Shown here: one piece after another, positions 514 through 4,320 of the stretch
Numbering within the stretch: the stretch's first letter is position 1
How the letters are laid out: every line of letters begins with the position of its first letter
NCBI GenBank assembly: GCA_023230535.1
Contig: JALNXC010000001.1
Coordinates: 1 to 25,277 of the forward strand
Source: Alkaliphilus sp.
GTDB lineage: Bacteria; Bacillota; Clostridia; Peptostreptococcales; Natronincolaceae
Direction: 5' to 3'
Length of the DNA: 25,277 nt
The notes under the pieces: model-generated
Databases searched by the model: none
Seen by the model: the letters and a program-made list of their open reading frames with translations, nothing else
What the model was told of the DNA's origin: nothing
Made by a program: the position numbers and the translations under genes

Positions 514-1202
514 CCGCCAGGTTGCAAAAAATAGCGGCTCAGGTTACAATAGGCCACCGTGTTGCGGATATAGGAACGGATCATGGATATATTCCCGTAT
601 ATCTGTTAAAAAATAAAATAAGTCCTTTTGTAATAGCAGGAGATATAAATGAACGGCCTTTAAAATGTGCTGAGGATAATATCGCATTTAACAACCTTTC
701 ACATTGTATAGAGACAAGATTGGGAAATGGGCTTTCAATTTTAAAACCTAAAGAAGTTGATACTATAATTATTGCAGGTATGGGCGGGTTATTAATCAGT
801 GAATTATTGAATAGTTCAAAAGAAATAGTACAAAATCTTGATACCTTAATACTTCAGCCCATGCAGGCCCAATCAGAATTAAGAGAGTATCTGGTAGGAA
901 ATGGTTTTATCATAGAAAAAGATATATTAGTTAGGGAAGGCCGCCATATTTATGAAATTATCGTGGCAAAACCCGAGGAACGGATAAAGGCGATAGACCC
1001 AATTTATTATGAGGTTGGATTATATATATACAATAATCCCAGACCGTTAGCAATGGAGTTCATTGATAGGAAAATAAAAACAACAAGGGAGATCATACGG
1101 AACATAGGTGAAAATGTTTCAGGGCCTTCGGCTGAAAAGTTAAAAGAGATGAAAAAGAAGTTAAAAAAACTTGAGGAGGTATATTTATGTTTGCAACGGT
1201 AG
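486..1202 (+). CDS. trmK: tRNA (adenine(22)-N1)-methyltransferase
   Basis: Motifs VADIGTDHGYIP, IIIAGMGG and LILQP, plus synteny with nif3. GTG start at 486; TTG at 498 is an alternative. Confidence 0.93.
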   Translation: MNWELSKKLTARLQKIAAQVTIGHRVADIGTDHGYIPVYLLKNKISPFVIAGDINERPLKCAEDNIAFNNLSHCIETRLGNGLSILKPKEVDTIIIAGMGGLLISELLNSSKEIVQNLDTLILQPMQAQSELREYLVGNGFIIEKDILVREGRHIYEIIVAKPEERIKAIDPIYYEVGLYIYNNPRPLAMEFIDRKIKTTREIIRNIGENVSGPSAEKLKEMKKKLKKLEEVYLCLQR

Positions 1203-2305
1203 AAACAATAGCCGATATTATTGAAAATTTAGCCCCTTTAAATTATGCATGCAAATGGGACAATGTCGGGTTACAGTTGGGGCGTAGGGAAGATGTTGTA
1301 AACAGGGTTTTGACAACATTAGAAATAACAGATGCTGTTTTAGATGAAGCAGTAGAAAAAAATGTAGATATGATTGTCACTCACCATCCGATGATTTTTT
1401 CACCATTAAAAAGCATTACAAAGGATGATATGAAAGGAAAAATTATTTATAGGGCAATTCAAAATAATATTGCCGTCTATGCTGCCCATACTAATATGGA
1501 TGTGGCACCCGACGGATTAAACGACTATATTGCGAACCGATTAAACATACGGGACATAAAGATTCTGGACATAACAGAAAGAACTTTATATTATAAACTT
1601 GTAGTTTTTATACCCTCAGGTTATGAGGAAAAGGTTGCGGAAGCCATTAATGCCGCAGGTGCCGGACATATAGGCGGTTATAGTCATTGCACTTTTAGAA
1701 CCGAAGGTATGGGTACATTTAAACCTTTGAAGGGTACGAAGCCATTCATAGGAAAACAGGGAGAATTAGAGAGGGTAGAAGAAATCAGACTGGAAACCAT
1801 AATTCCAAAAGAAAAATTAAAAGAGGCAATAAAGGCTTTAACAGAATCACATCCATATGAAGAGGTTGCTTACGATATTTATCCTCTAGCAAACGAAGGC
1901 ATTGTTAGGGGCATAGGAAGGTTTGGGGAATTACATAAACCGAAAATTTTAAAGGAATTAGCGATAGAGGTTAAGAAGCGAATGGATATCGAATATGTCA
2001 GAGTAGCAGGGGACCTAGGAACAATTATTAAGAAGGTAGCCGTTATCAATGGGAGTGGTGCGGATTTGATCCAAATAGCATTGTATAAAGGATGCCAATG
2101 TGTAATTACCGGAGATGTAAAATATCATGATGCTCAGGATGCCATTTCTCAGGCGATAAATGTAATAGATATCGGGCACTATGACAGCGAAAAAATTTTT
2201 ACACATTTTATAGCACAATATTTAAGGGAAGAGACAGGCAAAAAAGGATTAAATATTGATATAATAGAATCATCTATAAATATAGATCCGTTTCAAACCG
2301 TATAG
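1187..2305 (+). CDS. Nif3-like dinuclear metal-centre protein (YqfO type, with PII-like insertion)
   Basis: WDNVGLQLG, IVTHHP, AAHTNMD, ITGDVKYH and DIGHYDSE motifs. The central KLVVF...AGAGHIG.YSHC insert is typical of YqfO. Overlaps the trmK stop by 16 nt. Confidence 0.92.
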   Translation: MFATVETIADIIENLAPLNYACKWDNVGLQLGRREDVVNRVLTTLEITDAVLDEAVEKNVDMIVTHHPMIFSPLKSITKDDMKGKIIYRAIQNNIAVYAAHTNMDVAPDGLNDYIANRLNIRDIKILDITERTLYYKLVVFIPSGYEEKVAEAINAAGAGHIGGYSHCTFRTEGMGTFKPLKGTKPFIGKQGELERVEEIRLETIIPKEKLKEAIKALTESHPYEEVAYDIYPLANEGIVRGIGRFGELHKPKILKELAIEVKKRMDIEYVRVAGDLGTIIKKVAVINGSGADLIQIALYKGCQCVITGDVKYHDAQDAISQAINVIDIGHYDSEKIFTHFIAQYLREETGKKGLNIDIIESSINIDPFQTV

Positions 2306-2774: not shown

Positions 2775-2927
2775 AGCATAAATTTATATTATATATACTA
2801 TTTTGGGGATATACGGAATTTTTTACATATTATTGTGCACAAAGTGCAAAGGCTACATTATTTAAATATTTTTTAAAATGAGATTTTTAATATTTATATC
2901 CTTTTTATTTCTGTTAATTTTTAGATT

Positions 2928-2956
2928 TTGACATTTGACTAAAAACATGATAATAT
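2928..2956 (+). promoter_or_regulatory. Sigma-A-type promoter upstream of rnpB
   Basis: TTGACA (2928-2933), 17 bp, TAATAT (2951-2956) with an extended TG at 2948-2949. A second TATAAT lies at 2975-2980. Confidence 0.6.
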
Positions 2957-2983
2957 TAGTACCTGGTTAAATAATATAATATC

Positions 2984-3470
2984 GTGAGTAAGCCGGATGA
3001 TCGCGTGTTTTTGCACGAGGAAAGTCTGGGCTCCATAGGGTAGGGCGCTGGATAACACCCAGTGGGGGTGACCCCAAGGATAGTGCAACAGAGAGATACC
3101 GCCATTGAGAGGCGGGAGGTTAGAAATGGGAAATGAGAATTAGGGAGTTAAAAAACTCTTTAAATTTTGTGTTTTACTTTAATTTACCGGTTAAATACAA
3201 AGTCGGTCTATTTAGCAGAAGATTTTATTTCTCACTTCTCACTTCTAGCCTCTCACCTCTCAATTGGTAAGGCTGGAAAGGTGAGGTAAGAGCTCACCAG
3301 TGATTAGGCGACTAATCTGCTATGTAAACCCCGTCCGGAGCAAGACCAAGCAGGGAGAGAAAAGGCGGCTACCCGTCGCTTCCCGTAGGTAGGTCGCTTG
3401 AGCCGCCTGGCAACAGTCGGCCTAGATAGATGATCATCAAAAACAGAACCCAGCTTATAGGCTTAGTCAC
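2984..3470 (+). ncRNA. rnpB: RNase P RNA, bacterial type A, with an enlarged P12
   Basis: CR-I GAGGAAAGTCTGGGC (3017-3031) and CR-V ACAGAACCCAGCTTA (3443-3457). P1 ends gtgagtaagcc/ggcttagtcac. P2 gatgatc/gatcatc, P9 ggggtgacccc, P13 ggtgaggtaagagctcacc, P14 gattag-gcga-ctaatc and P18 with a GCAA loop are all visible. Confidence 0.95.
3104..3264 (+). repeat. Inverted heptamer-repeat element inside rnpB P12
   Basis: The 3' arm 3229-3263 reads ttctcac-ttctcac-ttctagc-ctctcac-ctctcaa. The 5' arm 3104-3139 is its imperfect reverse complement: 30 Watson-Crick, 3 G-U and 3 A-C positions over 36 nt. Confidence 0.88.
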
Positions 3471-3476
3471 TTATTT

Positions 3477-3510
3477 AAAAATCAACATTATTTGTTGATT
3501 TTTTGTTTTT
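3477..3510 (+). terminator. rnpB intrinsic terminator
   Basis: 11-bp stem aaaaatcaaca/tgttgattttt followed by a T-rich tract, 6 nt after the P1 3' strand. Confidence 0.85.
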
Positions 3511-3609
3511 ATTATCTATTATAAAAAAGGAGAACCAAGTGTGAAGTAGAATATTATATTTATTAGCGTTGGAATATAAAATTCAAATTAGTTGTTGGGG
3601 AATAGATAA

Positions 3610-4320
3610 ATGGATAAGGGTATCAGTAATGTAACAAAAAGGCTGGCATGTCTCTCAATGATATTAGTGGTTTGGATCATAGTTGGAGGACCTTTTAATA
3701 CATATTATTTAATTTGGAATTTAATATTAGCCTGGATTCCTATGATTTTTGCGCTGATATTTAAAAAAAATATAGGAAAAGGATTTTCCCGGAGTAGAAA
3801 TATTATTGTTTTATTTTCAGGTTTAATGTGGTTGTTCTTTTTTCCTAATGCAGTATATATAATTACAGATTATATTCATTTGAGCAATGACATATTTTAT
3901 TATTCAAATTCCGATTATATATCCTATCTGGGAAAAAGAAAAAAAATATATAATCTTGATTCTCTTCCATGGAACAATTTTTTTTCAATTTCTTTTGCGG
4001 TTTTTTTGGGATGCGCTCTGAGTGTCCTTTCCCTCTATATTTTCCATACATATATTGAAAAAAAGGGAGGGAAAAGGAACGGATGGATTTTTGTAACTGT
4101 TGTTCATCTACTCAGTGGGTATGCTATATATTTAGGTAGGTTCATACGATTTAATTCCTGGGATGTAATTTTTAAACCTCTGTCATTATTTAAATTTTTA
4201 TTTTTAGATATGGATAAAGTAGCTATTACCTTTACATTTTATTTCTTTTTATTGAGTCTGTTTATATATGGTATCTTTTATTTGTTCATATATATCGCAA
4301 AAACAGACGAGAAGCATTAA
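3610..4320 (+). CDS. DUF1361-family integral membrane protein
   Basis: WNLILAWIP, FFPNAVYIITDYIHL and YLGRFIRFNSWD motifs; multiple hydrophobic segments. Confidence 0.8.
   Translation: MDKGISNVTKRLACLSMILVVWIIVGGPFNTYYLIWNLILAWIPMIFALIFKKNIGKGFSRSRNIIVLFSGLMWLFFFPNAVYIITDYIHLSNDIFYYSNSDYISYLGKRKKIYNLDSLPWNNFFSISFAVFLGCALSVLSLYIFHTYIEKKGGKRNGWIFVTVVHLLSGYAIYLGRFIRFNSWDVIFKPLSLFKFLFLDMDKVAITFTFYFFLLSLFIYGIFYLFIYIAKTDEKH

Follow-up and report, generated by a model that had tools for sequence, protein, structure and literature searches.

Knowledge of STRR-type heptamer repeats goes back to the 1980s, and they were recognized in cyanobacterial RNase P RNA in 1997. Vioque reportedly described STRR heptamers in the P12 helix of rnpB from heterocyst-forming cyanobacteria in that year. 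To our knowledge, these heptamers are without an accepted origin or function. A further group of sequences found in essential RNAs is formed by the intervening sequences of 23S and 16S rRNA, for example in Salmonella and Leptospira, which are excised by RNase III. The P12 helix itself contains no universally conserved nucleotides and is absent in Mycoplasma fermentans (PMC2858038). A passage of the same article, which cites Vioque 1997 on this point, gives P12 as dispensable in cyanobacteria.

The cyanobacterial parallel had been drawn in an initial annotation of the DNA discussed here, and its period-7 build could be re-derived from the rnpB genes of Aliinostoc, Spirulina and Microcystis, in which 7-nt units make up P12 helices of 90, 110 and 150 nt, respectively. 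In Spirulina the 5' side consists of GAAGGCA units and the 3' side of TTCATCC units, giving a purine-rich 5' strand and a pyrimidine-rich 3' strand, while the units of Microcystis read CTGATAA. Our literature search found no report of a heptamer-repeat P12 in Firmicutes. The gene that we describe lies in a window of 25,277 nt (the whole stretch of DNA that was analysed) and belongs to a Bacillota-like host: the nearest protein clusters of the genome are those of Bacillota, in agreement with the initial annotation. This genome, denoted G000, is a metagenome-assembled genome (MAG) of 1.65 Mb with 37% G+C in 304 contigs and is 82.7% complete. Other G-numbers denote the relatives with which it was compared.

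The rnpB gene and its P12 insert

The type A RNase P RNA model of Rfam (RF00010) matches the gene over its full length (269.6 bits, E = 2.8e-87, gathering threshold 100 bits), with an alignment that spans model positions 1–367 of 367. A search of G000 with this model gives this one match, and rnpB is thus present as a single copy in the assembly. The conserved core blocks are found in order and with high posterior probability. These are the P4 strands GAGGAAAGUC and ACAGAACCC together with the J11/12 and J12/13 regions, all of which are invariant in four species of the genus. By these sequence criteria the RNA is a bacterial RNase P RNA of type A, and catalysis on pre-tRNA is predicted. All of its extra sequence is located between model positions 136 and 137, corresponding to the apical loop of P12. 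The features of the locus are collected in Table 1.

Table 1. Features of the rnpB locus (positions in the window)
Feature	Position	Strand	Basis
Promoter-like site of rnpB (TTGACA, 17 nt, TAATAT; TG before the second hexamer)	2928..2956	+	Consensus scan, 10/12 matches
rnpB, 489 nt	2985..3473	+	RF00010
P12 native base, 5' strand ACCGCC	3098..3103	+	RF00010 alignment; invariant in the genus
Insert 5' arm, five degenerate purine-rich heptamers (consensus RYGRGAR)	3104..3139	+	Register and pairing computed
Insert AT-rich core, 89 nt, predicted three-hairpin junction	3140..3228	+	MFE and centroid fold
Insert 3' arm, five pyrimidine-rich heptamers	3229..3264	+	Tandem Repeats Finder and pairing with 3104–3139
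P12 native base, 3' strand GGTAAGG	3266..3272	+	RF00010 alignment; the contig of G005 starts exactly here
AT-rich hairpin and T run after rnpB, probable terminator	3479..3507	+	Read from sequence

The promoter-like block, which is of the sigma-70 type, is kept in the sister species G009, where the remaining upstream spacer has diverged. The hairpin behind the gene is likewise kept in G009, with divergence of the spacer beyond it; it is not flagged by a strict terminator scan that demands three G-C pairs. A consensus scan of the P12 insert gave no promoter or terminator inside it.

The insert comprises 162 nt (3104–3265) at the tip of P12 and brings the total length of this helix to 175 nt. A P12 hairpin of about 10 bp is thereby turned into a predicted rod of 36 bp capped by an AT-rich junction. 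The rod helix (3104–3139/3229–3264) consists of 30 Watson–Crick, three G-U and three A-C/C-A pairs, such that all six non-Watson–Crick pairs are transition-type wobbles. The units of the 5' arm are TTGAGAG, GCGGGAG, GTTAGAA, ATGGGAA and ATGAGAA, and those of the 3' arm are TTCTCAC, TTCTCAC, TTCTAGC, CTCTCAC and CTCTCAA; the latter represent the same unit as the genomic arrays described below. Tandem Repeats Finder reports a period of 7 with 4.9 copies of TTCTCAC at 3229–3262. The 5' arm alone stays below the threshold of the program and is a degenerate complement of the 3' arm in the same 7-nt register.

The predicted fold of the segment 3098–3272 has an energy of −69.7 kcal/mol, compared with −35.3 ± 3.9 kcal/mol for shuffled sequences (z = −8.9), and none of the 200 shuffles is as good. 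Three sub-hairpins are predicted in the core (3140–3163, 3164–3203 and 3205–3224), and this core is not derived from the repeat. When the insert alone was compared with Rfam at E values up to 1, only sub-threshold matches to plant miRNA-precursor models were obtained. We regard these as generic long-hairpin noise and have rejected a known RNA family hidden in the core. The same insert, identical base for base, is found in two more public assemblies (ENA ERZ27247376 and ERZ27247346), and no length polymorphism is seen across the three assemblies of this species.

These results agree well with the initial annotation, which had proposed a type A RNase P RNA with an insert in P12, given the insert 162 nt and its helix exactly the base-pair composition above with five units per arm, and placed at least two sub-hairpins in the core. 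Both of the sub-hairpins that it named are among the three predicted here. A small correction concerns the length of the RNA, which had been put at about 487 nt and is 489 nt according to RF00010.

Variation of P12 among relatives

Outside P12 the rnpB genes of the genus are 91–98% identical, and the cores of G003, G006 and G008 are 94–98% identical to that of G000 (97.8% for G003) despite P12 helices of only 35–67 nt. G000, with its 175-nt P12, has 5+5 units and the 89-nt core. The rnpB of the sister species G009 is 493 nt long and contains a homologous insert with about seven near-perfect GTGAGAA-type units on the 5' side, four units on the 3' side and a homologous AT-rich core. In G006 and in the metagenome locus L164, P12 measures 51 nt and contains a 2+2-unit hairpin without a core, and in G003 it measures 35 nt with two units in the loop (2+0). 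G008 and two metagenome contigs have an AT-rich P12 of 67 nt that is unrelated in sequence and is free of heptamers. Scanning of metagenomes with a genus-specific rnpB 26-mer yielded three loci, two of the G008 type and one of the G006 type, and no further large insert.

The comparison of rnpB across relatives that the initial annotation had suggested uncovers both presence/absence and size variation within a single genus. The genus provides a natural deletion series in which 162, ∼164, 37, 21 and 0 nt of heptamer-derived insert are carried on near-identical cores, and which can be used for testing the effects of the rod on folding, stability and processing. The remaining assemblies illustrate a practical consequence, namely that heptamer arrays break short-read assemblies. 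No rnpB was found in four of the ten genomes of the genus (G001, G002, G004 and G007), and in a fifth, G005, the gene is split at P12, with the 5' half missing from a contig that begins exactly at the P12 3' end. Such gaps matter where rnpB serves as a marker or as a completeness check.

In a tree of the rnpB cores rooted on other genera (∼325 sites, supports of 0.84–0.96), G009 is the first branch, followed by the pairs (G000, G003) and (G008, G006). On this topology the large insert looks ancestral and later reduced: the ancestor of the genus probably had it, and it would have been lost or shortened at least twice thereafter. Alternatively, G000 and G009 could have come to share the insert by transfer or gene conversion.

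G000 and G009 are 82.6% identical over the insert and 93.9% over the ribozyme core, against ∼57–75% in the flanking spacers, of which the upstream one is barely alignable. Eight changes fall at predicted base pairs of the insert, all of which are one-sided and pair-keeping, and no double change is seen. The hairpin 3164–3203 is common to both species, and the one-sided changes in it keep its pairs. The first sub-hairpin of the core is not conserved. The arms of G009 are unequal (∼7 versus 4 units) and its predicted helix is much less regular than that of G000, so that a long perfect duplex is not the conserved trait.

Beyond the genus, mutually homologous heptamer-periodic P12 inserts of 115–123 nt are found in G016, G017 and G050, which represent three more genera of the family. 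These inserts contain four compensatory pairs. The congeners G047 and G018 have a short P12 without an insert. G017 also contains dispersed arrays of its own heptamer variant, whereas its 101-nt P12 insert has no second full copy in the G017 genome. In the wider class to which G000 belongs, 145 of the 150 sampled genomes have a type A rnpB, mostly of 330–375 nt. Expansions of P12 or of the whole RNA occur in several lineages of this sample, with rnpB genes of 382–429 nt and one of 619 nt. The initial annotation had named equally long P12 helices being routine in the clade as a point against its reading. In the sample of 145, the 489-nt rnpB is the second longest and only the 619-nt gene is longer. 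Eight long rnpB genes of the class were inspected by eye and have no evident period-7 build.

The heptamer unit elsewhere in the genome

The unit GTGRGAA/TTCYCAC, with YNRGARR as a looser form of its purine strand, is a genome-wide repeat in G000. Two tandem units, (TTCYCAC)2 with at most one mismatch, give 71 matches against one in the reversed control, and a degenerate four-unit pattern of YTCYNRY gives 144 matches against none. Twelve intergenic tandem arrays of 8–40 units are spread over 11 contigs and represent 11 loci, one locus being held by two contigs. For seven of the arrays a contig end is no more than 200 nt away, indicating that short reads break there. Wherever a neighbouring gene is visible, at least one neighbour has the purine strand GTGRGAA as its sense strand. 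The exact three-unit 21-mer is present in six of the ten genomes of the genus and in none of the 26 genomes from the other 15 genera of the family.

Heptamer hairpins are also found between tRNA genes. In a cluster of ten tRNA genes on contig C110, the spacer between tRNA-Lys and tRNA-Ser is a 6+6-unit heptamer hairpin; its ends, ATTGAGATG...CCTCTAAAT, are similar to those of the P12 insert, ATTGAGAG...CTCTCAAT. The spacer between tRNA-His and tRNA-Gln is a second heptamer-periodic hairpin. Both are built in the same way as the P12 rod, with the purine arm 5' and the pyrimidine arm 3'. The corresponding two spacers of G008 are occupied by heptamer hairpins that differ from these and have other lengths. 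A loose search for inverted heptamer pairs (one mismatch per unit) performs no better on the genome than on its reversed sequence (428 versus 378 arrays). For inverted pairs we relied only on the strict pattern and on visual inspection of hairpins.

G000 contains further repeats. A hairpin element of ∼83 nt, whose arms are heptamer-periodic, is present at least 16 times, interleaved with a 22-nt GC-rich REP-like hairpin that gives ∼100 matches against one in the control. The genome also contains six matches to Y1 transposases at four to five loci; on its short contigs these genes are not adjacent to the repeats. Assignment of the P12 insert to the 83-nt hairpin family was considered and rejected, as an iterated nhmmer search never reached the insert.

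A short-word BLAST search of the 82.7% complete assembly gave no second copy of the whole 162-nt insert or of its 89-nt core, and matched the heptamer arms only. The initial annotation had viewed the insert as a MITE-like heptamer element that has invaded the ribozyme, and had proposed searching the genome for its unit and for inverted pairs. The unit is indeed repeated across the genome and not confined to rnpB, and inverted heptamer hairpins of the same build recur in the two tRNA spacers. The MITE-like reading itself is supported only in part, as the genome has the AT-rich core just once; the insert as a whole is single-copy and no target-site duplication is readable.

Interpretation and comparison with known systems

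We favour the reading that the 162-nt insert is an STRR-like repeat expansion of P12 that is tolerated and retained in the mature RNA, to which we assign a probability of about 0.62. The distal P12 stem consists, on both strands, of the lineage's own heptamer repeat, and its arms grow and shrink between species. At the DNA level the arms would change through slipped-strand mispairing and through deletion between units, as the differences in unit number suggest. Since these numbers differ both between arms and between species (5+5, 7+4, 2+2 and 2+0), slippage and deletion fit better than transposition. The insert would then be transcribed with the ribozyme and kept in the mature RNA, where the rod is expected to point away from the catalytic core and from the substrate-binding face. 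It would persist because nearly any helical cargo is tolerated in distal P12, and not because the cell needs it.

Judged from the sequence comparisons, the constraint on the insert is intermediate. The insert is better conserved than the spacers and related inserts contain compensatory pairs, so some constraint on its fold, and with it some selection, is possible. DNA-level processes can likewise maintain matching arms in palindromic repeats. A stronger form of this idea would be a selected extension, in which the rod and the AT-rich junction are kept for protein docking, for stability of the S-domain or for localization or regulation of RNase P. The conservation of the insert above its flanking spacers, the one-sided changes that preserve predicted pairs, the four compensatory pairs of the G016, G017 and G050 inserts and the presence of a non-repeat core with a hairpin common to G000 and G009 would all be in agreement with it. 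We nevertheless consider it unlikely, as the insert is lost or reduced in the nearest relatives (to 35 nt in G003 with its 97.8% identical core, to 51 nt in G006 and to an unrelated 67 nt in G008), two other genera have members with and without it, G000 and G009 do not share the first sub-hairpin, and P12 is described as dispensable or absent in other lineages (PMC2858038). In addition, selection for a defined rod does not easily account for arms that differ in unit number, as those of G009 do. An origin from a mobile element, in which a transposase or RAYT-type enzyme would have placed a MITE-like or REP-like hairpin with heptamer-periodic arms in the P12 loop instead of its having grown in place, is doubtful. 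The 83-nt and 22-nt families are numerous in G000, a 13-nt motif of the 83-nt element recurs in the 3' arm of the P12 insert in G050, and the ends of the G000 insert resemble those of the tRNA-Lys/tRNA-Ser spacer hairpin. As Y1-transposase genes are present, a repeat-mobilizing enzyme is conceivable. The profile of the 83-nt family, however, misses the G000 insert, the insert and its core are both single-copy, and the Y1-transposase genes are not beside these repeats on the available short contigs. The ATT/AAT that flanks the insert may be native P12 stem, given that it also flanks the short P12 of G033, and a target-site duplication can thus not be read from it.

The insert might also be an intervening sequence, as the initial annotation had suggested. 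RNase III would cut the rod and the insert would be discarded, leaving a two-piece RNase P RNA held together by the remaining fold. The predicted 36-bp duplex of the rod is nearly continuous, its sole interruptions being single mismatches of the wobble type, and the genome contains an rnc gene for RNase III (G000:C97:1713-2093, PF14622, 149 bits). Hairpins of the same type occur in tRNA-operon spacers, which are removed from the primary transcript anyway. We know of no report of a naturally fragmented bacterial RNase P RNA, and the unequal arms and much less regular helix of G009 speak against a duplex maintained for cleavage. The cyanobacterial precedent is reportedly a lengthened P12 and not a split RNA. 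Excision thus appears quite improbable. A wider version, in which heptamer hairpins are RNA-level elements that favour stable-RNA transcripts as double-strand processing sites, the P12 rod again being excised to give a two-piece RNA, is more improbable still. The entire observation could in principle be an artefact, either a mis-assembly of repeat reads or an rnpB pseudogene, since the assembly is a fragmented MAG in which heptamer arrays often end contigs. This is hardly credible with an identical insert in two further public assemblies, a homologous insert in the MAG of another species (G009) and all conserved model regions matched in what is the sole rnpB of the genome.

Taken as a tolerated repeat expansion, the insert is of value mainly through the size series within one genus and through the link between P12, the tRNA spacers and the genomic heptamers. 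The layout shared with cyanobacteria consists of 7-nt units in P12 with a purine arm 5' and a pyrimidine arm 3', in addition to intergenic arrays of the same unit. Its occurrence in a second, unrelated lineage means that the pattern is not a cyanobacterial oddity, and it points to a general rule by which distal P12 is a permissive site where the genome's own repeats pile up.

Among the known systems, the insert has features in common with several. Like the rRNA intervening sequences, it extends a peripheral helix at its tip in an essential structured RNA, has a long predicted duplex at its base, is patchy among relatives and is found in a host with an RNase III gene. The rRNA intervening sequences, however, are not built from heptamers, and excision is their defining property. 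With REP/BIME and MITE repeats it shares imperfect inverted arms, many genomic relatives and a fast turnover at occupied sites, and the genome also contains a GC-rich 22-nt hairpin family and Y1-transposase genes. In contrast to these repeats, the P12 insert is single-copy, its arms are tandem arrays of variable unit number, and there is neither a readable target-site duplication nor a linked transposase. The other long P12 helices of the class have in common with it that P12 is a length-variable helix, but the eight inspected lack an evident period-7 build. The cyanobacterial STRR systems differ in host, G000 being a Bacillota/Clostridia-like anaerobe, and in their units, the three cyanobacterial P12 units being distinct from GTGRGAA/TTCYCAC. 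The G000 insert also exceeds theirs in length (162 nt) and contains an AT-rich junction of 89 nt that is not made of repeats. It nevertheless resembles them in that a 7-nt tandem unit is present on both strands of distal P12 and lengthens the helix, that the unit is also found in dispersed intergenic arrays, and that its size varies among relatives while the ribozyme core is left untouched.

Heptamer arrays and hairpin mosaics in the Alkaliphilus genome

Outside the window, intergenic gaps of the Alkaliphilus sp. genome (G000) are filled by pure tandem arrays of GTGRGAA/TTCYCAC, each of 8–40 units. The arrays often start only a few bases from a gene end, and their purine strand has the same orientation as at least one adjacent gene at 11 of 11 loci. 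For seven arrays a contig end lies less than 200 nt away. Heptamer-repeat hairpins also make up the His/Gln and Lys/Ser spacers of a ten-tRNA cluster. In a sister species (G008) the same two spacers carry heptamer hairpins that differ from those of G000, also in length, and both spacers look like long-occupied sites with fast turnover, like the variable helix P12 of RNase P RNA.

G000 further contains a BIME-like mosaic of two alternating hairpins, an element of 83 nt (ATTAGAGGTCAGAAATCGG...CCGATATCCGACTTCTAAGT) and a GC-rich one of 22 nt (GGGGCRGACCYRTGTGTCYGCC). The 83-nt element was found at locus L201 and in at least 15 further places. The 22-nt hairpin gave about 106 matches versus 1 for the control. 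The Y1-transposase family (PF01797) is represented by six matches at four to five loci of this genome, none of which was seen adjoining the 83-nt or 22-nt hairpin repeats.

Repeat-bearing loci and unusual rnpB genes
Feature	Genome	Contig and positions	Score (bits)	P12 (nt)
Array	G000	C28:10579-10704		
Array	G000	C43:3374-3478		
Array	G000	C66:118-397		
Array	G000	C66:5100-5281		
Array	G000	C171:974-1085		
Array	G000	C179:3-163		
Array	G000	C194:3934-4045		
Array	G000	C220:4-171		
Array	G000	C240:3405-3474		
Array	G000	C295:2658-2741		
tRNA-spacer hairpins, L200	G000	C110:556-697, 854-956		
tRNA-spacer hairpins, L204	G008	C71:1032-1145, 1317-1475		
Stretch with the 83-nt element, L201	G000	C217:2800-3200		
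83-nt element, further copies	G000	C283, C41, C13, C197, C71, C56, C81, C2, C304, C44, C110, C33		
rnpB, L168	G051	C1:2842407-2842761	307	33
rnpB, L178	G051	C1:2866055-2866427	304	52
rnpB, L192	G192	C47:21108-21726		

Variation within and between rnpB genes

A contig from a second sample (L216), compared with window positions 2775–3809, is identical until about position 3368. Beyond this point, over the remaining 3' portion of rnpB and the gene that follows, about 5% of the sites differ from the window. The switch is either a strain chimera made by the assembler or a recombination junction within rnpB.

The complete genome G051, from the same family, carries two type A rnpB genes, both full-length and separated by about 24 kb, and their P12 helices differ from each other. 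In another family of the class, rnpB of G192 reaches 619 nt, with about 300 nt of additional P12 sequence that shows no evident build from heptamers.

The heptamer in other phyla and in cyanobacterial P12

A pattern scan of genome contigs returned at least 120 stretches with the exact 21-mer (TTCYCAC)x3 (L039–L158), with a chance expectation of about 2. Among the matches listed are Gemmatimonadota, Acidobacteriota, Planctomycetota, Bacteroidota, Verrucomicrobiota, cyanobacteria and Clostridia, with arrays of up to 36 units among the Bacteroidota matches listed. The heptamer is therefore not lineage-specific. The reversed control of the degenerate heptamer pattern itself gave 8–10 matches in three genomes of the same family (G047, G018 and G019), which thus hold other families of heptamer arrays, for example (CACYCTT)n.

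Microcystis and Spirulina are cyanobacteria that do not form heterocysts. A heptamer-built P12 is present in both Microcystis sp. BLCC-F210 (P12 of 150 nt, rnpB of 512 nt; L180) and Spirulina sp. CCNP1310 (110 and 438 nt, respectively; L181), and the phenomenon is therefore broader than is suggested by the title of Vioque (1997), on heptamers in P12 of rnpB from heterocyst-forming cyanobacteria.
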